This document shows, piece after piece, positions 5,584-57,418 of a stretch of DNA of 64,000 nucleotides. The position numbers and the translations under genes were made by a program. Origin of the DNA: Candidatus Nomurabacteria bacterium (GTDB taxonomy: Bacteria; Patescibacteriota; Minisyncoccia; Phycocordibacterales; SBAW01). Below the pieces are notes generated by a model. That model had not been told where the DNA came from. It worked only from the letters and a program-made list of their open reading frames with translations, and made no database searches. Within the stretch, counting starts at the first letter, position 1. The number at the start of each line of letters is the position of its first letter. The stretch lies in assembly GCA_943349945.1 (NCBI GenBank), contig CALQZS010000001.1, positions 277,953 through 341,952 on the forward strand, given 5' to 3'.

Positions 5584-6921
5584 ATGACTACTACAAAAGA
5601 ACTTTGGGAAAACGCGCTTGTTGAGCTTGAGCTCACCATTTCTAAACCAAATTTCAACACTTGGTTTAAAGATACGCACGTAGTGCGTGTTGAAGATGGG
5701 GTGGTGTACCTGGGGGTGCCGAGTCAGTTTGCTAGAGACTGGCTTTCGACCAAATTTCATAAGGATATATTGCGGTCGCTGCGTGGACTCTCCGACAGTG
5801 TGCGCTCGGTCGAGTACGTTATATCGCGCGGGGTCAAAAAAACGGACGAACCAAAAACTGTCCCCTCGGCACCGTCGGAGTTGCCGCTCGAGAACGTACA
5901 CGCAAAAACCAACCTAAACCCACGGTTTACCCTACAAACGTTCATCGTAGGACCCTTTAACGAGCTTGCGCATGCGGCAGCCCAAGCGGTTATCCGCAAA
6001 CCCGGCATCGCCTACAACCCACTCCTTATCTACGGCCCAACGGGCCTTGGCAAAACACACCTTATACAGTCGATAGGGAACCACTTCCGCATCAATGCAC
6101 CCGACCGTAAAGTGCAGTATGTAACGTCGGAGAAGTTTTCGATGGACTATGTTTCGTCTATACAGTCGGGCAAAATACAGAGTTTTAAAGAAAAATATCG
6201 CCAATACGACCTCCTTATCATGGATGACGTGCAATTTTTGGCGAAAATGGAAAAAACAAAAGAAGAGTTCTTTCATTTGTTTAATTACCTCCACGACGGC
6301 AACAAACAGCTGGTTTTTTCATCCGACCAACACCCAAACGTTATACAAAACCTAGAAGACAGGCTTAAATCGCGCTTTAGCGCCGGAATGATTGTTTCGG
6401 TGACCCCACCAGACCACGAGTCGCGTCTTGCTATAGTGCGCTCTAAAGCATCTGCCCATGGCGTGGTGTTGCCTGACGAAGTATTAGAGTACCTTGCGAC
6501 CGCGGTCGAGGGGAACGTTCGCGAACTTGAGGGAGCACTCAATCTTCTGCTTATTCAATTAGAAATCCGCACAGAACCTCTGACTATAAACGATGCTAAA
6601 ACACTGCTTCGCGGTGCAAGCAATATGACCAGGAAAAGCGTGTCTGTGCAGGAAGTGGTCAAAACCATTGCCGGTTTTTATGGCGTAGAGGAGGGGAGTA
6701 TCTATGAAAAAACCCGCCGAAAAGAGGTAGTGCGTCCACGGCAAGTGATTATGTTTTTATTGCGCGAAGACTTTAAAATATCGTTCCCCACTATTGGGGA
6801 AAAACTAGGAGGGCGCGACCACACCACTGTTATCCATTCTTGCGAAAAAATCCGCACCAACATACAAACCGACAGTGTTTTGTCCCAAGAATTACAGCAA
6901 ATCCGACTCATGTTGAAATGA
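5584..6921 (+). CDS. dnaA: chromosomal replication initiator DnaA (true start MTTTKELWEN..., not the upstream start in the ORF track)
   Basis: N-terminal DnaA domain, Walker A 'GPTGLGKTHL', AAA+ sensor motifs, C-terminal DNA-binding helix; divergent from rpmH. Confidence 0.9.
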   Translation: MTTTKELWENALVELELTISKPNFNTWFKDTHVVRVEDGVVYLGVPSQFARDWLSTKFHKDILRSLRGLSDSVRSVEYVISRGVKKTDEPKTVPSAPSELPLENVHAKTNLNPRFTLQTFIVGPFNELAHAAAQAVIRKPGIAYNPLLIYGPTGLGKTHLIQSIGNHFRINAPDRKVQYVTSEKFSMDYVSSIQSGKIQSFKEKYRQYDLLIMDDVQFLAKMEKTKEEFFHLFNYLHDGNKQLVFSSDQHPNVIQNLEDRLKSRFSAGMIVSVTPPDHESRLAIVRSKASAHGVVLPDEVLEYLATAVEGNVRELEGALNLLLIQLEIRTEPLTINDAKTLLRGASNMTRKSVSVQEVVKTIAGFYGVEEGSIYEKTRRKEVVRPRQVIMFLLREDFKISFPTIGEKLGGRDHTTVIHSCEKIRTNIQTDSVLSQELQQIRLMLK

Positions 6922-7123
6922 TGTGGATAAGTGGCAGAATAACCTATGGAGATATGTTGAAAACAAATGCACAGAATTGTTATCCCCAGAGGAAGTTGTT
7001 AGTTACACACAGGTATTCCGGGCAAAAAAATCCTTAAAAACAGCTTCACAGCAACAAACTAACGACTTATCCGAGTAATCCACAGCCTTAGTAGTAGTAA
7101 AAAGCTTTTATAAACAGAGACTT
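6922..7123. other. candidate oriC: dnaA-dnaN intergenic region with a perfect DnaA box and several near-consensus boxes plus an AT-rich stretch
   Basis: 'tgtggataa' (the reverse complement of TTATCCACA) at ~6925-6933; 'ttatcccca', 'taatccaca' and 'ttatccgag' variants; AT-rich 'tagtagtagtaaaaagcttttataaac' just upstream of dnaN. Confidence 0.5.
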
Positions 7124-8221
7124 ATGAAATTTGAAACAAGTACAGAACAACTTTTTACAGCAACGACTATAGCGAGTCGCTTTGCTGAAAAGCGTGCAAA
7201 CCTGCCAGTGCTGCAGAGTGTGCTTTTAGTTGCTGAAGGTGGGCGCTTGTCTCTGCGCGCCACAAACCTTGAGTGCGGTGTCGAGATTATTGTTCCTGCA
7301 AAAGTTACGACGGAGGGTGTAGTGGCTATACCCGCGGGCGTGCTCAGTGGTTTTTTAAGCAATGCGCGTGGCAAGGTTGTTTCGGGAGTGCTTGAGGGTG
7401 AGGTGTTTAAAATAGAAGCTGAGCGCGCTGCAGCGTCGATGAAAACCATTCCGCACGAGGATTTCCCCTTGTTGCCACGAGTATCTGCAGAAAAAGCCTT
7501 TACGGTTAAAAGCAGCGACCTGTCTCGCGCGATACGCAATGTTGCATACTGTGCATCGACCTCGGCGGTTAAGCCAGAGCTACAGAGCGTGCTGCTGCAA
7601 GGAGAGGGTGGAAAGTTGCTTGTTGCCGCTACCGACTCATTTCGGTTGGCAGAAAAATCTATATCACTGCGCTCTGGTGGGTCGGTGCCACAACTCCTGC
7701 TCCCTGCACGCAATGCGGCAGAGCTTATGCGCATTTTGGACACTACAAACGGCGATGTAGAGGTGTATTACAACGAAAATCAGATATCTACCCACGTCGA
7801 CAATACCTACTACACCAGCCGGCTTATAGATGGCACGTTCCCCAACTATCACCAAATAATCCCCAAAACATTTTTGACCGAGGCTGTGGTGCTCAGAGAA
7901 GATCTGTCCGCGTCGCTTAAATCGTTGTCGGTGTTTGCTGATAAATTTTCGCAAGTATCGCTGGCAATAGATCCGGTAAAGAAAACCATACTCCTGTCTT
8001 CTAGAAATCCTGATGTGGGCGAGCAAACCAGCTCTTTGCGCGCAACTATAGTGGGAGAAGAAACAACCATGTCGTTTAATGGTCGTTATTTGGCAGACAG
8101 TCTGCAGGCTATAACAGGGGAGAGTGTTCGACTGCACGCCAACGGCGCGGGCAAGCCCATGCTTATTAAAGACGCAGTAGACGAATCGTTCTTCTACTTG
8201 GCGATGCCGATGAATCGCTAA
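7124..8221 (+). CDS. dnaN: DNA polymerase III beta sliding clamp
   Basis: 365-aa three-domain clamp immediately downstream of dnaA. Confidence 0.9.
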   Translation: MKFETSTEQLFTATTIASRFAEKRANLPVLQSVLLVAEGGRLSLRATNLECGVEIIVPAKVTTEGVVAIPAGVLSGFLSNARGKVVSGVLEGEVFKIEAERAAASMKTIPHEDFPLLPRVSAEKAFTVKSSDLSRAIRNVAYCASTSAVKPELQSVLLQGEGGKLLVAATDSFRLAEKSISLRSGGSVPQLLLPARNAAELMRILDTTNGDVEVYYNENQISTHVDNTYYTSRLIDGTFPNYHQIIPKTFLTEAVVLREDLSASLKSLSVFADKFSQVSLAIDPVKKTILLSSRNPDVGEQTSSLRATIVGEETTMSFNGRYLADSLQAITGESVRLHANGAGKPMLIKDAVDESFFYLAMPMNR

Positions 8222-29402: not shown

Positions 29403-30118
29403 TGGACCCCACCGTACTCTACGAAGACGATTCTGTTATCGTCGTCAACAAGCCTGCTGGTCTGGCTGTGCATGCCGACGGCAAACACGACCGCGCAACG
29501 CTGGTGGACTGGTTGCTTGCCGAGTACCCAGATATTAAAGGAGTAGGGGAGCCACAAACGCTCGCCGACGGCACCACTATAGAGCGTCCGGGCATAGTGC
29601 ACCGACTCGACCGCGAGACGTCGGGAGTGTTGATTGTGGCGCGCACGCAAGAGAGTTTTGATTTTTTGAAGGAGCAGTTTCATGAACGCGAGGTGCGCAA
29701 GGTGTATCGTGCGTTTGTATATGGAAACATCAAAGACGACCGGGGTATTATCGACAAGCCCATTGGCAGCACTCGCGGCGGCACGGGCCCACGTTCTGCA
29801 AAAAACGCCTACGGGGTTATGCGCGATGCTCTGACCATGTACCGGGTTATTACCCGAACGCCAGAAGTGACCTACGTCGAAGTGTTCCCCAAAACTGGCC
29901 GTACGCACCAAATCCGTGTGCACTTTGCGGCCATACAGCGCCCTATAGTGGGGGACAGGCTCTATGCGTCGCGTCGCGAAGCAAGGCTTGGGTTCAACAG
30001 ATTAGCGCTTCATGCCTTATCGCTTACGGTCAAGATCCCTCGTGGGGGCGAGCGCACGTTTGAAGCGCCCCTACCCCCCGATTTTGTGCAGGCAGAGCAG
30101 GAATTGCGAAGTATTTGA
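29403..30118 (+). CDS. RluA-family 23S rRNA/tRNA pseudouridine synthase
   Basis: '..HRLDRETSGVLIVAR..' catalytic Asp motif; start set at MDPTVLYEDD. Confidence 0.8.
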
Positions 30119-30150
30119 GCCTGTGGTACAGTCCTGTAACCTATAGAGAT

Positions 30151-30645
30151 ATGAAATCAGCAGTCCAAACAACCCCTATAAACATGCAAGAGCGCGCAGC
30201 GCTTGGTATTCGCGCTGGCGACAGTGTGCGTGTATGGCAAAAAATCGAAGAGCTCAAAAAGAGTAAAGGCGCCAACAAAAAAGAGGTGGTGACTAAAAAC
30301 TACCGCAAACAAGCGTTTGAAGGTTTGGTCTTGGCGGTCAAGCACGGCAGCGAGCCTGGCGCGATGTTTACCGTCCGCAAAGTTGCCAGCGGTGTGGGGG
30401 TAGAGAAAATCTTCCCGCTCTACTCGCCTATGATCGACTCTATCGAAGTATTGCGTCGCACCCGTACCCGCCGTGCAAAACTCTACTTTATTCGCGAGAA
30501 GGCAACCCGCGATGTGAAGCGCGCAATGCGCAAGTCTGTCCAGGTTGAAAAAGCCGCTCCAAAAGCTGTAGAAGCAGAAGAGGTAGTAGAAACAGAGGAG
30601 CCAACAGCAGAGGCTCCACAAGAGGAAGTTGTAGTAAAAGAATAA
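30151..30645 (+). CDS. rplS: 50S ribosomal protein L19 with acidic C-terminal extension
   Basis: '..RAGDSVRVWQKIEE..KQAFEGLVLAVKHGS..FTVRKVASGVGVEKIFPLYSPMIDSIEVLRR..RAKLYFIREK' bL19 core; ~45-aa Glu/Val-rich tail. Confidence 0.8.
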   Translation: MKSAVQTTPINMQERAALGIRAGDSVRVWQKIEELKKSKGANKKEVVTKNYRKQAFEGLVLAVKHGSEPGAMFTVRKVASGVGVEKIFPLYSPMIDSIEVLRRTRTRRAKLYFIREKATRDVKRAMRKSVQVEKAAPKAVEAEEVVETEEPTAEAPQEEVVVKE

Positions 30646-30736
30646 TTATTCTCACAGAAGAACCAGAGAGATCTGGCTTTTTCTTTATAAACAATTGGTA
30701 TACGCTATTACCTTGAGGAAATGATACACTTCAAGT

Positions 30737-31408
30737 ATGGGGAAGCGTGGGTTAAAACCAAAAGGGAAAGTAAAAATAGCTTGGTCGCCAAATTTTGCGT
30801 ATGCAATAGGGTTGCTCGTTACTGACGGTTCTCTTTCTAAAGATGGTCGACACATTATTTTTGTGTCAAAAGACCTAGAGCAACTTAAGAATTTTATGAA
30901 AGCTCTTGGATTTAGTGCAAATATCAGCACAACTCGTTCTGGTTATACAGGGGAAATGACCACACGCGTTCAATTTGGAGATGTGTTATTTTACAATTTT
31001 CTTTTAGATATAGGACTTATGCCAAACAAAACGAAAGTTATAGATAGGGTGCATATACCAAACGAGTATTTTTTCGATTTTTTACGGGGATGTTTTGATG
31101 GGGACGGTTCCACGTATTCATATTTTGATCCACGCTGGAAGTCCAGTTTTATGTTCTATACCACTTTTGTTTCAGCAAGTGCGAAGCATATAGAATGGTT
31201 GCAAGAGGAGATCTCGAAACAAGCAGGCCTATATGGACATATTACAGGTCGTGGAAGTTCCAAGAGGGCTGTCCTTCAGCTCAAATATGCAAAAAAAGAA
31301 TCCCTGTTATTGCTTAAAAAAATGTACTACTCAAAAAGTCTTTTATGTCTTTCGCGTAAGCGGTTGAAAATTGAGAAGATGTTGCGTATAATCGGCGAGC
31401 AGCTTTAG
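30737..31408 (+). CDS. LAGLIDADG-family homing endonuclease-like protein (two LAGLIDADG motifs), free-standing
   Basis: '..AYAIGLLVTDGSLSKDG..' and '..FDFLRGCFDGDGSTYS..' motifs ~100 aa apart; gene lies in a markedly AT-rich segment and ends 8 bp before tRNA-Leu. Confidence 0.6.
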   Translation: MGKRGLKPKGKVKIAWSPNFAYAIGLLVTDGSLSKDGRHIIFVSKDLEQLKNFMKALGFSANISTTRSGYTGEMTTRVQFGDVLFYNFLLDIGLMPNKTKVIDRVHIPNEYFFDFLRGCFDGDGSTYSYFDPRWKSSFMFYTTFVSASAKHIEWLQEEISKQAGLYGHITGRGSSKRAVLQLKYAKKESLLLLKKMYYSKSLLCLSRKRLKIEKMLRIIGEQL

Positions 31409-31416
31409 AGACATCT

Positions 31417-31500
31417 GCCCGGGTGTTGAAATTGGTAGACATTTATCCTTGAGGTGGATAAGCCCTCACGGGCGTGGAGGTTCGAGTCCTCTCCCGGGCA
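31417..31500 (+). tRNA. tRNA-Leu (anticodon GAG)
   Basis: Acceptor GCCCGGG/CCCGGGC, D-loop AAATTGGTAGA, anticodon stem TATCC/GGATA with loop TTGAGGT, long variable arm, T-arm GGAGG-TTCGAGT-CCTCT, discriminator A. The D-stem is weak. Confidence 0.75.
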
Positions 31501-31668
31501 CAGACAGAAAACATAGAAAACATAGAAAATAGCAAGACAAATATTCTATTTGTAACCAGAACAACTGACACGAGTGCTTAGTGTATTGGTGAACAAGTTG
31601 TTTCTGGGGTGTGAAGCTTTTTCGGATATAGTATAGTGTAAAAATAGTCAAAGCTATGAGATTTAATT

Positions 31669-31956
31669 TTGTACACTATGGATCAAAATAATGAACCACC
31701 CCGGATAACATTTGAGAACGAAGGGCTTCAGCGGCCTGCTCAGGCTTTTCAAGCATCAACGCCAAAAATCGTACAATGGGTCATTCAGTATTCCGGCGGA
31801 CTTGTCAAAGATGAAAAACAAGCAATTTATGTTCTGGTTGGATTTGTGGCGGTGGCAATTTCTTTCTCTGTTTTTTCAGTTTTTAATGGAGGAACATTTG
31901 AAAGTCCGAAAGACACCGAGGTATTGCCTGCCGGATTATCACCATTGTTGCCATGA
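31669..31956 (+). CDS. hypothetical small membrane protein upstream of the pilin gene
   Basis: 95-aa ORF with one TM (IYVLVGFVAVAISFSVFSVF); AT-rich codon usage like its neighbours. Confidence 0.3.
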   Translation: MYTMDQNNEPPRITFENEGLQRPAQAFQASTPKIVQWVIQYSGGLVKDEKQAIYVLVGFVAVAISFSVFSVFNGGTFESPKDTEVLPAGLSPLLP

Positions 31957-32525
31957 ATAAATCAAGAGGATTTACCCTCATTGAGCTTTTGGTAGTTATC
32001 GCTATCATTGGAATTTTATCCAGTATAGTGTTGACGAATTTAAACACAGCTCGTTCAAAAGCTCGAGATACAAAAAGAGTTGCTGAAATAAGGCAAATAG
32101 AAACAGCTTTGGAAATGTATCATGCCAATAACGGCAGATACCCTAACATAGTGCATGGACTAGGGTTTGATACTAATTGTGGAGGAGGTGTGCCTTTGGT
32201 TGTTGGTTGTGGGCACTGTCAACGTTGGTGTGCTCTTGAAACAGCCCTCGCTCCCCATATGAGCAAATTACCCCGAGATCCTCTAGGAACCGCTCAAAGT
32301 GTTTACTACTATGCGTACTCATCAAACGCAAACGACCAAATGTATGGCCTTATGGCGGTGTTAGAAAACTTGAGTACAATAAACCAAAATGATGGGGGCT
32401 ACTACTCCTCCGCTTTTGAGAGAGGACCACGTCCAGTTTATTGCGTGAATAAATATACAGGAGGCGGCGCAGAATGGTTAAATGTCTCTGGCGCTTGGTC
32501 AAATGTTTGTGCTGGAGGAAATTAA
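31953..32525 (+). CDS. type IV pilin (prepilin with class III signal peptide)
   Basis: 'MNKSRG|FTLIELLVVIAIIGILSSIVL': canonical G-1/F+1/E+5 prepilin cleavage and methylation motif; Cys pair in the C-terminal region. Confidence 0.75.
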   Translation: MNKSRGFTLIELLVVIAIIGILSSIVLTNLNTARSKARDTKRVAEIRQIETALEMYHANNGRYPNIVHGLGFDTNCGGGVPLVVGCGHCQRWCALETALAPHMSKLPRDPLGTAQSVYYYAYSSNANDQMYGLMAVLENLSTINQNDGGYYSSAFERGPRPVYCVNKYTGGGAEWLNVSGAWSNVCAGGN

Positions 32526-32711
32526 CCACGAACGAAATTGAACCCAGTTTGTCCCAGAGTAAAACATCTCGTTAGCTGTCCGCTGGTATTGGTCTTGGGT
32601 TTATTGCACCGTTGTACTATTTGTCACAAAGAGAGCTTAAAAACCAAACACAGTAGCCGTACCCGTTTGGTCAAATATATGCTATAAAACAAGCGTCCTG
32701 TGCGTTTATAT

Positions 32712-32784
32712 GGTGCCTATGGTGTAAAGGTTAACACTCGAGTTTGTGGAACTCGCAATCTGGGTTCGATTCCCAGTAGGCACC
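32712..32784 (+). tRNA. tRNA-His (anticodon GUG) with encoded G-1 and encoded CCA (32785-32787)
   Basis: Extra 5' G pairing with discriminator C73; acceptor GTGCCTA/TAGGCAC; anticodon loop TTGTGGA; T-arm CTGGG-TTCGATT-CCCAG. Confidence 0.85.
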
Positions 32785-32803
32785 CCAGAATAATTATTTA
32801 TAC

Positions 32804-33757
32804 ATGACCTATATACTATTGATCGTTGGTTTGGTGTTTTTGATTAAGGGTGCCGAGTTTTTGGTCGACGGTGCATCGTCCATTGCCAAAAAGTTTCGCG
32901 TATCTAACTTGGTTATTGGGCTCACGATTGTGGCCTTTGGTACCAGCGCGCCAGAGCTGTTTGTAAACCTCTTCGCCTCACTAAACGGCACAACCGACAT
33001 AGCTATAGGCAACATCGTAGGAAGCAATATTGTTAACATGTTGTTTATTTTAGGCATCGCGGCGATTATCTACCCATTGCGGGTTGGTAAGGGGACGGTA
33101 TGGAAAGAAATCCCACTCAGCTTGTTGGCGGCGGGGCTGCTGCTGGTGATGGCAAACGATGTATTTGTGGATGGTGCAGGCATCAATGCGCTCACACGTA
33201 TAGACGGCATAATCTTCGTATCCTTTTTTGTCATATTTTTGTATTACACCTTCGGTATTGCAGGTAACCAAAGCGCCGACGAGCAGCCAGCGCCCCGTGT
33301 GTACTCGGGGCCAGCATCAGCGGGGCTCATTGCACTTGGCTTGGTTGGCTTGGTGCTTGGCGGTCAGTGGATAGTAAATGGCGCAGTGGCTATTGCAGCA
33401 AGTTTGGGGCTGAGTGATGCGCTTATTGGTCTTACGGTGGTGGCTATTGGCACATCGCTCCCCGAGCTCGCTACTTCTGCAGTCGCGGCGTATAAAAAGA
33501 ATGCCGACATTGCAGTGGGGAACGTTGTTGGTTCAAACATCTTTAACATATTTTGGATATTGGGCTTGAGCGCATTTATCTCGCCGTTGCCATTTGCGCC
33601 AGTACTAACGTTTGACCTGTGGGTCACGGTGGGGGCAAGCGCTCTCTTGTTTGTTTGGATGTTTTTGGGCAAGCGGCATATCTTGGAACGTTGGCAAGGC
33701 GTGGTATTTGTCCTGCTCTATGTTGTCTACGTTGCGGCCATAGTGTGGCGGGGCTAA
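32804..33757 (+). CDS. CaCA-family sodium/calcium exchanger (YrbG-like)
   Basis: Two alpha-repeat motifs '..GTSAPELFV..' and '..GTSLPELATS..', ~10 TM helices. Confidence 0.8.
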   Translation: MTYILLIVGLVFLIKGAEFLVDGASSIAKKFRVSNLVIGLTIVAFGTSAPELFVNLFASLNGTTDIAIGNIVGSNIVNMLFILGIAAIIYPLRVGKGTVWKEIPLSLLAAGLLLVMANDVFVDGAGINALTRIDGIIFVSFFVIFLYYTFGIAGNQSADEQPAPRVYSGPASAGLIALGLVGLVLGGQWIVNGAVAIAASLGLSDALIGLTVVAIGTSLPELATSAVAAYKKNADIAVGNVVGSNIFNIFWILGLSAFISPLPFAPVLTFDLWVTVGASALLFVWMFLGKRHILERWQGVVFVLLYVVYVAAIVWRG

Positions 33758-33790
33758 TCGCGTAAAAGTGGGCGGTGGTATACTGCAGAA

Positions 33791-34885
33791 ATGGAGGATA
33801 AGAAGCTTCGGGTGGGGATACTCTTTGGCGGCAAATCTGCCGAGCATGAAGTGTCTTTGCAGTCGGCAAAAAACATTGCTGACGCGATAGATAAAACCAA
33901 GTACGAAGTTTCGCTTATTGCCATAGACAAAGCGGGTAAATGGTTGCTGCCAAACCAAGCAGAGTTTCTACTCAACGCAAGCGATCCAAAAAAAATAGCG
34001 CTCAACACTACTGGTAACGATAGTGTGGCCTTGGTCCCACAAAGTAGTGGGGAAGTGACCAGTCTCTCAAACACCCAAACGCTCCCCAAGGTTGATGTGG
34101 TATTCCCGATACTCCACGGGCCCTTTGGCGAGGATGGCACTGTGCAAGGATTGCTTAAACTTGCGGGTGTGCCGTTTGTGGGTGCGGGGGTGTTGGGCTC
34201 GGCGGTGGGGATGGACAAAGATGTGATGAAGCGTCTGTTGCGCGATTCAGGAGTGCCGATTGCAAAGTTTGTGGTCTTGCATCAAGAAGAGTCTGTTGAT
34301 TTCGCTGCAATTTCTAGTGAGTTAGGACTCCCGTTGTTTATAAAGCCTGCGAACTTAGGCTCGTCGGTTGGGGTCAGTAAAGCAAAAAACAAGCAGGAGT
34401 TTGATGTAGCAGTAGCAGAAGCATTTGAATTTGATACAAAAATTATTGTCGAAGAGTTTATTGAGGGAAGAGAGTTAGAGTGTGGCGTCTTGGGCAACCA
34501 AAACCCCGAGGCTTCGGTGGTGGGGGAGATTGTGCCGCATCACGAGTTTTACTCATACGAAGCGAAATATCTTGATGAGGATGGTGCGGCGTTGGTGGTG
34601 CCCGCAGATATACCAAAAGAGGCAGCAGAGCAGTTGCGCGCCTTGGCGGTATTGGTGTTTAAAGTGCTCTCTTGCGAAGGCTTGGCACGAGTAGACTTTT
34701 TCTATACAAAAGAGGGTAAGGTATTTGTGAATGAGATAAACACGATGCCCGGGTTTACAAAAATAAGCATGTACCCGCGGCTGTGGGGTGTGTCGGGGGT
34801 GTCCTACACAGACCTCATTAGTCGCCTCATCAGCTTGGCGCTCGAGCGGTTTGTGCAGGAGCAAAAACTTAAAACAGCCAGGTAA
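33791..34885 (+). CDS. ddl: D-alanine--D-alanine ligase
   Basis: '..LRVGILFGGKSAEHEVSLQSA..' N-terminal and ATP-grasp motifs '..VNEINTMPGFT..'. Confidence 0.85.
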   Translation: MEDKKLRVGILFGGKSAEHEVSLQSAKNIADAIDKTKYEVSLIAIDKAGKWLLPNQAEFLLNASDPKKIALNTTGNDSVALVPQSSGEVTSLSNTQTLPKVDVVFPILHGPFGEDGTVQGLLKLAGVPFVGAGVLGSAVGMDKDVMKRLLRDSGVPIAKFVVLHQEESVDFAAISSELGLPLFIKPANLGSSVGVSKAKNKQEFDVAVAEAFEFDTKIIVEEFIEGRELECGVLGNQNPEASVVGEIVPHHEFYSYEAKYLDEDGAALVVPADIPKEAAEQLRALAVLVFKVLSCEGLARVDFFYTKEGKVFVNEINTMPGFTKISMYPRLWGVSGVSYTDLISRLISLALERFVQEQKLKTAR

Positions 34886-34912: not shown

Positions 34913-35419
34913 ATGGCAAAGAAAGCAAAGAAAAAGCAAAAAGAGTATATGGAGCAACTGGCGCTCACGGTTACTCGTGCGGTCGGCTCTTTGGAGTCGG
35001 TAATCATCCACACATTCATTTTTGCGGGGAGTTTTGTATTGGTGCAGCTGGGGCTCGTGCCTTTTGAGCGGATGTTGCTTGTGTTGACCACCATTGTGTC
35101 TTTGGAGGCCATATACCTTTCTATTTTTATACAAATGACTATAAATTATACGACGCGTACTATCGAAAACGTCGAACAAGATATCGAAGAGATCCAAGAA
35201 GACATTGACGAAATCCAAGAGGACGTCGACGAGATTCAAGAAGACGTGGATGAAATTCAAGAAAATGTCGACGAGATTCAAGAGGATGTGGAAGAGATGA
35301 CCGAAGACGAAAAAGCAGAGGAGGCGGCGCAAGTGGGTCAAGAAAAAACACTCGACGAAATCCGCACAGGTCTACAAAAGCTCATGCAGGATGTTGAGAA
35401 GCTGCATAACCGCCCCTAA
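34913..35419 (+). CDS. hypothetical membrane protein (2 TM) with C-terminal tandem acidic heptad repeats (D/E-I/V-D/E-E-I-Q-E x6)
   Basis: '..EQDIEEIQEDIDEIQEDVDEIQEDVDEIQENVDEIQEDVEEM..' encoded by 21-nt tandem repeats at ~35163-35290; N-terminal architecture resembles DUF1003-type proteins. Confidence 0.45.
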   Translation: MAKKAKKKQKEYMEQLALTVTRAVGSLESVIIHTFIFAGSFVLVQLGLVPFERMLLVLTTIVSLEAIYLSIFIQMTINYTTRTIENVEQDIEEIQEDIDEIQEDVDEIQEDVDEIQENVDEIQEDVEEMTEDEKAEEAAQVGQEKTLDEIRTGLQKLMQDVEKLHNRP

Positions 35420-35424
35420 ACACT

Positions 35425-35874
35425 ATGGCAAAAATACAAAGAAAAATAAGCGACAAGGCATTTGGGTTTTGGTCTGAGTTTAAAAATTTTGCTATCAAAG
35501 GCAATGCGTTTGATTTGGCAATTGCGGTGGTCATCGGTAATGCGTTTAGCGCCATTGTGAACTCGCTAGTGGCAGACATAATCACGCCGCTGCTTGGGTT
35601 TGTAACCGGCAGCACTACCGACATAAAAAAACTATCAATAGATTTGGCGGTAGGAGAGAATCAGATTTTGCTTAACTACGGTGCATTTATACAAACGATA
35701 GTAAACTTCTTTGTGATCGCGCTCTCTATTTTTATGGTGTTTAAGCTTATTTCTGTAGCGCGCCAGCGGCTGTTTGTCCAGGGTGAGGCGGCAGTCCCCG
35801 CACATACCAAGCCTGCACAAGAGCTCTTGCTCGAAGAAATAAGGGATTTGCTCAAATCTCGACCGAAGGGGTAG
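35425..35874 (+). CDS. mscL: large-conductance mechanosensitive channel
   Basis: '..FKNFAIKGNAFDLAIAVVIGNAFSAIVNSLVADIITPLLG..' MscL TM1 signature. Confidence 0.85.
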   Translation: MAKIQRKISDKAFGFWSEFKNFAIKGNAFDLAIAVVIGNAFSAIVNSLVADIITPLLGFVTGSTTDIKKLSIDLAVGENQILLNYGAFIQTIVNFFVIALSIFMVFKLISVARQRLFVQGEAAVPAHTKPAQELLLEEIRDLLKSRPKG

Positions 35875-52730: not shown

Positions 52731-53780
52731 ATGCGCTCTTCTATTAAAGAGCAGACTTTATTTGCCAAAAAACTCTCCTTTTTGCTGGGAGCACAAATAT
52801 CTATTGTGGAGTGTCTGGATATGCTTCGCGCACAGACGACGTCTAAAGCCAAAGAGCAAGCGTTGGATGATGTAGTGCAGAGTGTTGCGAACGGACAACT
52901 ACTGTCAGCTAGTCTTGGTAAGTATCCTCGTTTGTTTAGTGATTTTTTTATTACCCTTGTGCGCGTTGGAGAACAAAGCGGCACGCTACACACAAGCCTC
53001 GTACATCTTGCGGATGAATTAAAGAAAAAGCACCTGCTGCGCACTAAAGTGCTTGGCGCGCTCGTGTATCCAACCACTATTTTTATAGGGACTATTTTGG
53101 TGACTGTGGTGTTGATGGTGTATATTTTTCCAAAAATCTTACCCATCTTTGCAAGTCTGCAAGTGCAATTACCGCTCTCGACTCGCCTGGTGCTGGCATT
53201 GAGTGATTTTCTTATTGCGTTTGGCCTTTGGTGCGCCTTGGTTGTTGGTGTTGTTGTTATTGCTTTGTATATTGCACGTAACAAATATACAAGAGTCCGC
53301 TGGTATGTTGATGCTGCCACGCTGCATGTGCCACTGGTGCGCCACATGGTGCAGAGCTATAACCGCGCCAATGTCTGTCGTACCCTTGGGCTGCTGCTCA
53401 ACAGTGGTATGTCACTGGGAGATGCATTACTCGTTACTGCGGAGGGGACACGGAATCTGCTTTATAAAAATAGTTTGTTGGACCTGTGTCTTTGTGTGCA
53501 ACAGGGGAGTTCCTTGTCGAGCGGGTTTGTACGGTATCCAAAATTATTTTCTGCGTTAACCATGCAGCTTGTGGCGGTAGGAGAGCGGACAGGCACACTC
53601 GCTGCGTCGCTTGTGTATGTGGGCGACTTGCATGAGGGGGAAGTGGATGAACAAACAAAACACCTTGCTGCATCTATTGAACCGGTGCTTATGATTGTAA
53701 TGGGGCTCACGGTTGGTTTTGTTGCGATAGCAATTATCACGCCCTTGTATGAAATTACCTCACACCTTACTCCGCGATAA
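52731..53780 (+). CDS. pilC: type IV pilus / type II secretion platform protein PilC/GspF
   Basis: Two GspF repeats with '..LVRVGEQSGTLHTSL..' and '..LVAVGERTGTLAASL..'. Confidence 0.8.
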   Translation: MRSSIKEQTLFAKKLSFLLGAQISIVECLDMLRAQTTSKAKEQALDDVVQSVANGQLLSASLGKYPRLFSDFFITLVRVGEQSGTLHTSLVHLADELKKKHLLRTKVLGALVYPTTIFIGTILVTVVLMVYIFPKILPIFASLQVQLPLSTRLVLALSDFLIAFGLWCALVVGVVVIALYIARNKYTRVRWYVDAATLHVPLVRHMVQSYNRANVCRTLGLLLNSGMSLGDALLVTAEGTRNLLYKNSLLDLCLCVQQGSSLSSGFVRYPKLFSALTMQLVAVGERTGTLAASLVYVGDLHEGEVDEQTKHLAASIEPVLMIVMGLTVGFVAIAIITPLYEITSHLTPR

Positions 53781-54240
53781 GTGCGACGACTTATTTTTGT
53801 TGCCACATAAAAGTGGCTTTACGTTGGTGGAAGTACTGGTGGTGTTAGGGTTACTTTTGCTACTTGTGGGTCTTGGAGGGCTGGGGAGTATGGAGGCGTA
53901 CAGGTCGTATGTGTTTACTGCAGAAACACACACATTAGTTAGTGTGTTAGAGCGGGCGCGCAGTCAGGCGCTGGTCAATAAACAGCAACTGCCGCATGGC
54001 GTATGTTACCAAGCGCCGCACTACATCCTTTTTCAGGGGACTGAGTGTGTAGATACACCAAGTAGTGAACGTATTAGGACAGCACGGAGTATTGCGGACG
54101 CTTCTGATTTTGACACCATGTTTCCTGTGGTCATATTTACGCCGCTCACTGCAACTACTGTCTCGGCAACCATACATGTTACAGATGGTTTGCGGACTAC
54201 GGACATTGTAATAAATGATGAAGGCGCAATTTTTTGGTAG
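53749..54240 (+). CDS. pseudopilin / minor pilin (prepilin-type N-terminus)
   Basis: '..HKSG|FTLVEVLVVLGLLLLLVGL..' class III signal peptide with Glu+5. Confidence 0.6.
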   Translation: MKLPHTLLRDKCDDLFLLPHKSGFTLVEVLVVLGLLLLLVGLGGLGSMEAYRSYVFTAETHTLVSVLERARSQALVNKQQLPHGVCYQAPHYILFQGTECVDTPSSERIRTARSIADASDFDTMFPVVIFTPLTATTVSATIHVTDGLRTTDIVINDEGAIFW

Positions 54241-56893: not shown

Positions 56894-57418
56894 ATGAGAC
56901 ATCTTCTCGTGCGCGCTAGGGGCGTTGTGCCTGGTAGTCGTGTGGGGTGGGGTCGTGGGTTTACACTTATTGAGCTGCTTATTGTAATTGGGGTTATTGC
57001 CATCTTAGCAACGGTAGTAGTGGTGGCTATTAATCCTGCGCGACAATTTGCGCAGGCACGTAATAGTCAGCGGGTCAGCAACGTGACAACCATTCTAAAC
57101 GCAATAGGGCAAAATATTGCCGAGAACAGAGGTGTCTTTATGTGTGGAGGTGTGTCATTCGATATAGGTGGGGCAAGTAGTACGGCGGGTATTATCGCCA
57201 GCGGTTCTGCCGACCACGACCTAGCACCTTGTTTGGTCCCTATATACCTCACAGCGCTGCCAGTGGACCCAGTGGGTACGTCAACGTGCGCAACTCCTGA
57301 CTATGAAGACACAAATAGCTACAACACTTGTTATGAAGTGTCGCGTGATGCGGCTGGTCGCGTGACGGTGCGCGCACCCTCGGCAGAGTTGGGGGAGCAA
57401 ATAGCTGTTACGAGATAG
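56894..57418 (+). CDS. type IV pilin (candidate major pilin of the locus)
   Basis: '..GRG|FTLIELLIVIGVIAILATVVVVAINP..' canonical prepilin motif; two Cys pairs in the C-terminal half. Confidence 0.7.
   Translation: MRHLLVRARGVVPGSRVGWGRGFTLIELLIVIGVIAILATVVVVAINPARQFAQARNSQRVSNVTTILNAIGQNIAENRGVFMCGGVSFDIGGASSTAGIIASGSADHDLAPCLVPIYLTALPVDPVGTSTCATPDYEDTNSYNTCYEVSRDAAGRVTVRAPSAELGEQIAVTR

Follow-up and report, generated by a model that had tools for sequence, protein, structure and literature searches.

A free-standing LAGLIDADG endonuclease gene beside tRNA-Leu in Patescibacteria, predicted to target the tRNA gene and to carry an immune copy

We describe a gene for a LAGLIDADG endonuclease that lies, free-standing, between rplS and a complete tRNA-Leu(GAG) gene in a 64,000-nucleotide (nt) stretch of Candidatus Nomurabacteria DNA (the window, whose positions serve as coordinates below). 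We propose that it encodes a homing endonuclease predicted to target the tRNA-Leu gene, and that the adjoining tRNA is an immune copy carried along with it, a reading to which we give a probability of about 0.6. The architecture is conserved among relatives, the gene is present or absent at one fixed site, relics and pseudogenes mark its decay, its presence is associated with the allele of the adjoining tRNA, and a paralogous cassette repeats the design at tRNA-Leu(CAG).

Two samples of related loci, labelled with L numbers such as L078, were compared with the window. The endonuclease-anchored sample came from a scan of a genome collection at one genome per species, from which 80 loci were fetched, and the rplS-anchored sample from a metagenome collection scanned with L19, instead of the endonuclease, as anchor. 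The host tree is a neighbour-joining tree of L19 and RluD for 93 loci.

A lone endonuclease gene between two tRNA-Leu sequences

The cassette and its left flank comprise the following features.

30115..30645, + strand: rplS, encoding ribosomal protein L19 (Pfam Ribosomal_L19, E = 1.9e-26); conserved left neighbour, outside the cassette
30663..30686, + strand: terminator-like hairpin of rplS, CCAGAGAGATCTGG, with a T-run (sequence inspection and consensus of relatives)
30693..30718, + strand: 5' fragment of tRNA-Leu(GAG), AATTGGTATACGCTATTACCTTGAGG; sole match in the window
30722..30730, + strand: extended -10 promoter-like element, TGATACACT; a consensus match ending 6 nt 5' of the ATG
30737..31408, + strand: gene for a two-domain LAGLIDADG endonuclease of 223 amino acids (aa) (Pfam, PHROG, structure model)
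31364..31392, + strand: sigma-70-type promoter-like site, TTGAAA-17-TATAAT (11/12); best match in 30000-33000
31417..31501, + strand: complete tRNA-Leu(GAG) (ARAGORN; Rfam tRNA, 43 bits)

All features from rplS to tRNA-His lie on the + strand, and the insert measures only ~0.77 kb. An earlier, sequence-only reading of this DNA had placed the stop codon of the LAGLIDADG open reading frame (ORF) 8 nt before an intact tRNA-Leu(GAG), which the coordinates confirm. The hairpin and T-run occupy the same position in most related loci.

The ORF product matches Pfam LAGLIDADG_3 (E = 4e-6) and PHROG 4645, 'endonuclease' (E = 3e-26, residues 17-215, spanning both domains), and a sequence search of the PDB matched I-Tsp061I and I-CreI. 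Its AlphaFold model (pLDDT 88.5, pTM 0.87) has two alpha-beta-beta-alpha-beta-beta-alpha domains, with a further helix at the C-terminus, and best matches I-Tsp061I (PDB 2dch; Foldseek E = 6e-11, TM-score 0.66/0.71), followed by WhiA, inteins, I-AniI and I-DmoI. The catalytic aspartates that end the motifs, D30 (GLLVTDG) and D123 (FDGDG), do not vary among 25 aligned homologues, so that the acidic residues whose integrity the earlier reading had proposed to check are intact in both motifs; among full-length locus copies, motif 1 is intact in 79/79 and motif 2 in 76/79. The alignment holds 53 invariant columns, identity is 55-71% across named candidate phyla, and a basic N-terminal tail, MGKRGxKPKGKVKI, is conserved. 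We regard the product as a bona fide two-domain monomeric LAGLIDADG enzyme whose cleavage activity is predicted. Monomeric homing endonucleases of this class make site-specific double-strand cuts at targets of ~20 bp and leave 4-nt 3' overhangs. Like I-Tsp061I and the archaeal, monomeric I-DmoI, the protein is a single chain of ~200 aa with two domains and an acidic residue ending both motifs. Unlike those enzymes, which belong to archaeal rRNA introns, it is encoded on its own in a bacterial chromosome beside a tRNA; identity to them is 12-16%, and it adds the basic N-terminal tail and a C-terminal helix whose coding DNA holds a promoter-like site.

More than 4700 homologues were found, the best 120 of which are all ~220 aa long and 61-72% identical, and the named members among these 120 are all Patescibacteria. 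The one-genome-per-species scan found the gene in at least 446 species, with carriers that include Kaiser-, Adler-, Nomura-, Jorgensen-, Wolfe-, Azam-, Ryan-, Harrison-, Lipton- and Staskawiczbacteria, and sequence comparison marks the family as specific to Paceibacteria/Parcubacteria (Patescibacteria). NCBIfam holds no model for it, and source annotations read 'hypothetical protein' or, generically, 'LAGLIDADG family homing endonuclease'. Intact copies are under purifying selection: the ratio of nonsynonymous to synonymous substitution (dN/dS) is 0.106 in the close pair L044/L057, where RluD gives 0.074 and L19 0.011. A viral contig collection yielded no family member above 36% identity, and none of the 78 distant viral relatives (at most 36% identity) has any tRNA within 250 nt. 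We therefore reject carriage by phage, and regard the tRNA linkage as specific to this family, since its distant viral relatives never adjoin a tRNA.

LAGLIDADG enzymes are usually encoded inside a self-splicing intron or an intein, free-standing members being an accepted minority. Around this ORF no Rfam match other than the two tRNAs was found at E <= 1, and its non-coding flanks measure 18 nt (5') and 8 nt (3'). As no intron RNA family is detectable, the gene is free-standing, as the earlier reading had claimed, and a group I or group II intron or another structured RNA is rejected. Nor does the locus resemble a group I intron in a tRNA anticodon loop: there is no ribozyme, tRNA positions 1-13 are missing from the 5' piece, and the tRNA downstream is complete.

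The tRNA-Leu fragment upstream of the ORF spans the D-loop, the 5' strand of the anticodon stem and the anticodon loop with GAG, from about position 14 to about position 37/38. It has no acceptor strand and carries one extra base near its centre, so that a segment reading GACGTAT or GACGCAT without that base here reads GACGCTAT. The window 24-mer TTGGTATACGCTATTACCTTGAGG at 30695-30718 is the only match in the window, where none is expected by chance, and a regulon test for other copies of this 24-nt fragment in the window found none. A consensus, TTGGTAGACGCTA(Y)(W)ACCTTGAGG, occurs with at most 7 mismatches between the rplS terminator and the start codon in 66/81 loci. Information content is near the maximum of 2 bits at most positions, and between lineages the fragment varies less than does the corresponding part of real tRNAs, in which the anticodon stem is free to change. 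In L078 the fragment aligns with the tRNA-Leu of its empty sister L191 at 87% over 31 nt, and rplS and the terminator, hairpin and T-run included, align as well.

A -10-like hexamer directly follows the fragment, often in the extended form TGnTATAAT. Such a hexamer precedes the start codon in 72/81 loci, at a gap of exactly 6 nt in 39 and of 6-8 nt in 55. Since the hexamer, a consensus match, ends 6 nt before the ATG, the endonuclease mRNA is probably leaderless. The fragment overlaps this predicted promoter region, and may serve as a homology arm, as an autoregulatory operator, or as both. A DnaA-box-like motif, TTATCCACA or its complement, abuts the fragment in ~15 loci, in both GAG- and CAG-type cassettes (L015, L022, L023, L028 and L035 read TTATCCACAATTGG, L008 and L020 TGTGGATAATTGG, and the window TTTATAAACAATTGG at 30684-30698); it may simply extend a conserved, putatively protein-binding block.

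At the other end of the gene, the site TTGAAA-17-TATAAT lies in the final 45 nt of coding sequence, and 24 nt separate it from the tRNA. In ~40/77 loci there is a TTGAAA-17 with a -10-like hexamer, in most cases TATAAT or TATAGT; this element coincides with codons for the conserved residues RLKIE..L.I(I/V)GE and is kept in the deletion relics L179, L186, L196 and L029. It is the probable tRNA-Leu promoter; since the stop codon and the tRNA are only 0-30 nt apart, transcription of the tRNA must start within the ORF or pass through it. In ~17/80 loci the ORF reads into the tRNA without a stop, 15-36 nt deep and at the discrete offsets -15, -21 and -35/-36 (L012, L028, L050, L055, L062 and L070 are among them), and there 5' processing of the tRNA would leave a non-stop mRNA. 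Separately, a TTGACAA motif stands ~9 nt (7-15 nt) 5' of tRNA-Leu in ~20 related loci, among them L044, L057, L069, L082, L179 and L186. It is absent from the window, is kept in deletion relics, and lies too near the tRNA for a -35 box.

Occupied, empty and decayed sites

Linkage around the gene is tight in the endonuclease-anchored sample. A tRNA-Leu(GAG) (AAG in two loci) follows on the same strand, at -36 to +31 nt from the stop codon, in 76/80 loci, and the four loci without it are all at contig edges; rplS lies upstream in 76/80, usually with rluD before it. The earlier reading had suggested a mobile or horizontally acquired cassette, or a domesticated endonuclease, and had named a gene order shared by relatives as evidence to the contrary; since 76 of 80 relatives that bear the endonuclease share the order rplS-LAGLIDADG-tRNA-Leu, a one-off acquisition does not hold. 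In L018, a record titled Omnitrophica WOR_2 bacterium GWA2_47_8, there is no rplS upstream, yet tRNA-Leu(GAG) directly follows the gene; it is also the sole locus with endonuclease GC above that of its flanks (56 versus 50%), and represents either a mis-binned contig or transfer outside Paceibacteria.

The rplS-anchored sample gives a different picture of how widely the gene is held. Here, rplS is directly followed by tRNA-Leu(GAG), often within 1-50 nt, in 50 loci, while 8 carry a full endonuclease gene and 2 more are cut by the contig end. A universally conserved, vertically inherited housekeeping protein of Paceibacteria is thus rejected, and the apparent universal conservation is a sampling artefact, as loci had been sampled through the gene itself. 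Occupied and empty loci are interleaved on the host tree (26 Fitch parsimony changes versus 28.0 for shuffled labels), and the empty loci L191, L168 and L170 have occupied nearest relatives (L078, L082 and L052, respectively) at protein distances of 0.15-0.18. The comparison of the rplS-to-tRNA-His interval that the earlier reading had called for thus reveals variable presence of the endonuclease gene at a fixed site, and not the single insertion, shared with a transmembrane protein and a pilin, that had been envisaged. In L210, where rplS and tRNA-Leu(GAG) form an empty site, a more distant member (5864-6388, 47% identity) follows 2.4 kb further downstream; no tRNA-Leu fragment is recognisable upstream of this gene, which is cut by the edge of the locus.

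Empty and occupied sites differ in the tRNA itself. Many empty-site tRNAs read TGGTAGACG[C/T]ACTACCTTGAGGTGGTAG, which is the fragment consensus minus one base; the L167 allele includes GCCCAGGTGGCGAAATTGGTAGACGTACTACCTTGAGGTGGTAGCGCCCG. A 28-mer matching the fragment is present in 13/50 empty-site tRNAs and in 0/85 occupied-site tRNAs (Fisher p = 8e-7). Measured against the fragment consensus, itself built from occupied loci, 16/50 empty-site and 2/85 occupied-site tRNAs stand at 2 edits or fewer (p = 1.7e-6). Nearest relatives were also paired, with each occupied partner used once; of the 18 informative pairs, 16 have the empty partner nearer the fragment-matching allele (p = 0.0013). The closest occupied-site tRNAs have an inserted C in the D-loop or changes in GTAGAC, and the window tRNA-Leu, with the anticodon stem ATTTATCC...GGATAAG unlike that of the allele mirrored by the fragment, is 4 edits from the fragment consensus. 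The conserved neighbouring gene, tRNA-Leu, differs between carriers and non-carriers, as in intronless homing. The simplest reading, we infer, is that the fragment records the recognition sequence of the enzyme and that the carriers' tRNA allele would go uncut. Alleles of the tRNA are reshuffled with respect to hosts: L044 and L057 are 0.04 apart as hosts and 0.28 in the tRNA, and L057 and L082 are 0.20 and 0.01 apart.

Decay of the gene is also evident. In L179, L186 and L196 the gene is gone and only the last 14-17 codons, with TTGAAA-17-TATAAT/TATAGT, are kept before the tRNA; L186 also retains the first bases of the fragment. We suggest that relics retain the 3' end of the ORF because the tRNA promoter is entangled with it. 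L044 (4001-4681) has TGA in place of the invariant Gly5 codon (codon 5) in a gene that is otherwise intact, and L032 has a stop at codon 168, likewise in an otherwise intact gene. The L044 tRNA has a target-like anticodon stem and an altered D-loop.

Locus L029 appears to record a second round of invasion. It opens with an old C-terminal relic (..ALKI*YALFIIGE*) that holds the promoter-like site. After a 9-nt spacer comes the full 5' half of a tRNA (positions 1-38), in which the extra T of the fragment recurs; a -10 box then precedes an endonuclease gene that is intact, and a diverged tRNA-Leu closes the series. This order is as expected if a cassette had entered the tRNA of an older, decayed cassette, and on our reading positions 1-13 of the recipient tRNA were kept and positions 14-38 converted to the donor fragment. 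The mobile behaviour that the earlier reading had suspected is thus borne out by presence/absence polymorphism at one fixed site, relics, pseudogenes and one re-invaded locus.

A paralogous cassette at tRNA-Leu(CAG) is an independent replicate of this architecture. A second copy in L022 (1013-1800, - strand) has an upstream fragment, ...GGTATACGCTATATGCTTCAGC, with anticodon CAG, and a downstream neighbour, tRNA-Leu(CAG), with the stop codon inside the tRNA. The corresponding subfamily has 1424 homologues, in which S[FY]RFY replaces RWKSSFMFY in a beta hairpin of the C-domain. All six members examined (L022, L246 at 1440-2260, and L249-L252) adjoin tRNA-Leu(CAG) and have a CAG-bearing upstream fragment. 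Five of the six lie within an Arg(TCT)-Leu(CAG)-Val(TAC) cluster, the stretch fetched for L251 being without tRNA-Arg or tRNA-Val, and Kaiserbacteria contig JACPGH010000005.1 carries both GAG-type and CAG-type cassettes. Empty tRNA-Leu(CAG) alleles, TGGTATACGCGTACGTCTCAGAAGCGTA, resemble the CAG fragments, and endonuclease-adjacent tRNAs differ. Nine positions, 4 of them in beta strands, distinguish the GAG and CAG subfamilies, too few for significance.

A proposed cycle at tRNA-Leu genes and its rivals

In the cycle that we propose, the target would be the tRNA-Leu(GAG) gene from D-loop to anticodon stem-loop, approximately TGGTAGACG[C/T]ACTACCTTGAGG(TGGTAG). The mobile unit would have four parts: a copy of the target's 5' portion with a 1-nt insertion and no acceptor strand (30693-30718), over the endonuclease promoter region; a probably leaderless endonuclease ORF; a promoter within the last 45 nt of that ORF; and a complete tRNA-Leu(GAG), run by the embedded promoter, whose D-arm or anticodon stem is unlike the target allele. 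As the linked tRNA differs from the target allele, the host would keep an essential tRNA that should be safe from its own enzyme. When cassette DNA enters a cell with a sensitive allele, the enzyme would break the tRNA gene, and recombinational repair would copy in both endonuclease gene and immune tRNA, using homology either in the rplS flanks or in arms derived from the tRNA, with the fragment as left arm and the 3' half of the tRNA as right arm. The gene may later decay, or be deleted save for its promoter-bearing 3' end, leaving the locus open to re-invasion. The fragment could act as a left homology arm, as L029 suggests, as an operator over the endonuclease promoter, as in I-TevI, or as both.

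A broader version of this proposal can be put forward tentatively, at slightly less than even odds. In it, the cassette would be a natural bacterial drive of 'cleave-and-rescue'-like logic, setting a nuclease against an essential tRNA gene with an immune copy and tRNA-derived arms aboard. Because the immune tRNA and these arms travel along, such a drive could enter tRNA-Leu genes throughout an entire bacterial class whatever their flanks, and it would have diversified to at least two isoacceptors (GAG and CAG). Turnover of such a drive would directly attest that uncultured Patescibacteria often take up and recombine DNA.

Several points weigh against the homing cycle. That the enzyme cuts DNA, where exactly it would do so, that the linked tRNA is immune, what the fragment does and how the unit is transferred are all deduced from sequence. 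The start of the fragment (~position 14) and its 1-nt insertion are the same in nearly all loci, which points to one ancestral event plus descent, rather than to many independent insertions. Thirty of the 50 empty-site tRNAs carry some allele other than the target-like one, the tRNA shows no overall acceleration in occupied lineages, and the tRNAs of relic loci L186, L196 and L179 are 0, 1 and 2 edits from the target-like allele, which a simple model in which loss leaves an immune allele does not predict. In L249 and L252 the tRNA-Leu(CAG) is on the strand opposite the fragment, convergent with the ORF, an arrangement that also implies that the fragment travels with the endonuclease gene and is no passive leftover of the local tRNA. 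Nearest-neighbour relations of the endonuclease resemble those of the host almost as well as a control gene pair does, and together with a gene GC content that tracks the host (r = 0.82) this suggests that much inheritance is vertical. A distance correlation with L19/RluD, aimed at horizontal transfer, favours neither side: endonuclease distances are flat at ~0.42, possibly through saturated variable sites, and 'close' L19 pairs share only ~70% DNA identity. Synonymous sites are saturated between loci. Additionally, the two samples, one anchored on the endonuclease and one on rplS, differ in source collection as well as in anchoring; the number of gain and loss events is probably overestimated, as the host tree is noisy and built from two short proteins, and gains and losses are inseparable in the present data.

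Some of this evidence would also suit a domesticated LAGLIDADG DNA-binding protein that, with a logic like that of WhiA, no longer homes, binds a tRNA-like operator and regulates the rplS/tRNA-Leu locus, with patchiness reflecting dispensability. The strength of conservation (55-71% identity across candidate phyla, 53 invariant columns), a dN/dS of 0.1, a gene GC content that tracks the host, a conserved non-coding element of suitable size overlapping the endonuclease promoter, and the rank of WhiA as second-best structural match are all compatible with such a regulator. We nevertheless consider it unlikely. Domesticated proteins of the WhiA type have lost the catalytic acidic residues and end in a helix-turn-helix domain; here both catalytic aspartates are invariant, the model shows no added helix-turn-helix domain, and the protein scores 18.2 bits against the Pfam WhiA LAGLIDADG model, whose cut-off is 23.2. 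Relics, pseudogenes and a re-invaded locus better suit a selfish life cycle, and a regulator would have no obvious reason to be associated with diverged tRNA alleles.

The end of the fragment at ~37/38, the canonical site of tRNA introns, raises a further alternative, in which the tRNA-Leu(GAG) of an ancestor of Paceibacteria was interrupted at position 37/38 by a LAGLIDADG intron, of group I or of archaeal type. The ribozyme would have been lost and a duplicate tRNA have taken over, and the gene, immobile now and undergoing only losses since, would have been retained, for example, for an RNA-maturase-like role. Such a fossil agrees with the archaeal, intron-encoded nature of the closest solved relatives, with a fragment boundary and 1-nt insertion common across loci, and with largely vertical inheritance. 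It is hard to reconcile with a locus where no intron RNA family is detected, where only ~18 nt and 8 nt of non-coding DNA surround the ORF, and where the fragment has no acceptor strand. Near-2-bit conservation is also unexpected of a pure fossil while synonymous sites are saturated, the tested copies are under purifying selection, and in L029 the tRNA that received the insertion was already preceded by an older relic; we thus hold an intron fossil to be improbable.

The homing cycle that we favour has partial parallels in known systems. The Seg and Mob proteins of T-even phages are free-standing GIY-YIG or HNH homing endonucleases that act in mixed infections ('intronless homing'), with SegB in the tRNA gene cluster of T4. 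Their genes lie between conserved genes, their targets are in the neighbouring gene of non-carriers, carriers are protected by sequence differences, and they spread with flanking markers. Here, likewise, the gene stands beside a conserved gene that in non-carriers would hold the target and that in carriers is a variant allele; the differences are that this gene is chromosomal, that its presumed cleavage would be by a LAGLIDADG enzyme, and that it has a copy of a target fragment upstream and a tRNA promoter in its ORF. Group I introns interrupt bacterial tRNA anticodon loops in cyanobacterial tRNA-Leu(UAA) and in a tRNA-fMet, the latter with I-Ssp6803I. The point of interruption (here in tRNA-Leu) and the associated homing endonuclease are alike, whereas here there is no ribozyme and no 3' exon, a complete tRNA follows the ORF, and splicing is neither needed nor possible. 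I-TevI, an enzyme of the GIY-YIG family and thus of a different one, represses itself through an operator that resembles its own homing site; the likeness lies in a target-like sequence over the enzyme's own promoter in an uncleavable configuration (here a 1-nt insertion and truncation), at which binding and repression would be expected by analogy. Genomic islands placed at tRNA genes by integrases of the tyrosine or serine recombinase type have direct repeats of the tRNA 3' end at their borders. They too have a partial tRNA duplicate flanking the insert and preserve a complete tRNA, but here there is no integrase, the duplicate is the 5'/middle part (~14-37) rather than the 3' end, and the insert is ~0.77 kb.

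Within the candidate phyla radiation (CPR), rRNA insertion sequences carry LAGLIDADG genes, and one such enzyme is active in vitro (J Bacteriol 2024, PMC11270868). The bacterial group, the enzyme superfamily and the choice of highly conserved RNA genes as targets are the same; those genes, however, lie inside 16S/23S rRNA insertions or introns, and the text of that report contains neither the word tRNA nor free-standing. In the searchable full-text literature we found CPR LAGLIDADG genes only inside rRNA insertions (PMC11270868, PMC11809585), and no tRNA-linked or free-standing copies. Cleave-and-Rescue and Home-and-Rescue are engineered Cas9 gene drives in diploid insects (PMC6442612, PMC7968924). 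The logic of a nuclease set against an essential gene, tightly linked to a recoded, cleavage-resistant copy, is shared with our proposal, which differs in having a natural, protein-guided nuclease in a haploid bacterium; the likeness is functional only, and immunity here is a prediction. The enzyme class and the selfish logic are thus known, and the architecture and host group are not described in the searchable literature.

If the proposal is correct, the cassette represents a way into an essential, intron-free RNA gene that does not destroy it, by duplicating a part and carrying a resistant copy. The family would then be a long-lived one whose full cycle of invasion, decay, relic and re-invasion can be read from metagenomes. 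The cassette would explain the reshuffling of tRNA-Leu sequences with respect to host phylogeny, and could provide a locus-specific marker of gene flow in a group that is almost entirely uncultured. In practical terms, the family offers hundreds of natural variants of a small (~220 aa) meganuclease. For these, a target of ~22-28 bp and a mimic that should resist cleavage are explicitly predicted, and the two predicted natural specificities (GAG and CAG) lend themselves to the study of specificity change. The central claim is suited to the in vitro assay that has been applied to endonucleases from CPR rRNA insertions (PMC11270868).

Base composition and unlinked neighbours

Beyond the cassette, the interval up to tRNA-His holds these features.

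31506..31529, no strand: short tandem repeat of AGAAAACAT, 2.7 copies, period 9 (repeat search)
31669..31956, + strand: small transmembrane ORF, 95 aa (92 aa per gene callers); no family match, outside the cassette
31953..32525, + strand: type IV pilin or pseudopilin-like gene (N_methyl, T2SSG); outside the cassette
32713..32787, + strand: tRNA-His(GTG), the conserved right landmark; syntenic with empty relative L167

The tandem repeat after the tRNA, the small transmembrane protein and the type IV pilin gene had all been listed in the sequence-only reading, and all are present. GC content is 40.6% over 30646-32530 against 51.3% in the rest of the window, which makes this the lowest-GC 1885-bp stretch of the whole 64 kb, ~3.9 standard deviations (SD) under the mean. 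Of the AT-rich island that had been claimed, the sharp drop right after rplS stands; the flanks are at ~50-55% rather than a uniform 55%, and the dip ends at ~32900, beyond the pilin stop at which it had been closed.

A compositionally foreign cassette of 1.9 kb does not follow from this dip. The endonuclease gene has lower GC than its flanks in 75/76 loci (mean -7.8 points, SD 3.4) and tracks host GC at r = 0.82, and GC at third codon positions is also depressed; the window gene, at 38.6% versus 49.5% in its flanks, is typical of the family. Because the deficit is family-wide and scales with the host, it is not evidence of recent acquisition, and we reject a recent foreign island as deduced from GC.

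The pilin is a credible one, with matches to PF07963 (N_methyl, E = 2.3e-10), to TIGR02532 above cut-off and to T2SSG / GspG-like models, and with the prepilin motif GFTLIE followed by a hydrophobic helix; the small transmembrane ORF matched no family in Pfam, NCBIfam or PHROG. A prepilin gene follows tRNA-Leu(GAG) in only 1/97 loci, so the suggestion that the pilin arrived with the endonuclease fails, and a homologous pair of transmembrane and pilin genes lies at another place in L014. The pair is a separate insertion in the variable spacer between tRNA-Leu and tRNA-His. A single, recently co-acquired island of ~1.9 kb holding endonuclease, transmembrane protein and pilin beside the tRNA would account for the continuous GC dip from 30646 to ~32900 and for the variability of that spacer between genomes. 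It is nonetheless very improbable, given the family-wide GC offset of the endonuclease, the linkage of the pilin in a single locus, the synteny in 76/80 relatives, and the ORF list and Pfam matches between rplS and tRNA-His, which include no recombinase, integrase or other mobility gene.

Three segments of the window, independent of one another, are additional to what empty relative L167 has: the endonuclease cassette, the transmembrane and pilin genes between tRNA-Leu and tRNA-His, and a Na/Ca exchanger with Ddl after tRNA-His. The two tRNAs are adjacent in L012, L049, L167 and L216 and up to 3.8 kb apart elsewhere, and the spacer region is a general insertion hotspot in endonuclease-bearing and empty genomes alike. 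Cargo varies among relatives both between tRNA-Leu and tRNA-His and between tRNA-His and the next gene (window 31501-32713 and 32804-34885; L167:3568-3696), and in the window the latter spacer holds the Na/Ca exchanger and a D-Ala-D-Ala ligase. Two more ORFs with a prepilin motif lie at 53749-54240 (GC 47%) and 56894-57418 (GC 52%), so that the pilin at 31953-32525 (42.6% GC) is the most AT-rich of the three. Other local GC minima of the window are found at ~6700-7300 and 35000-35750 (0.40-0.42 in 500-bp windows).

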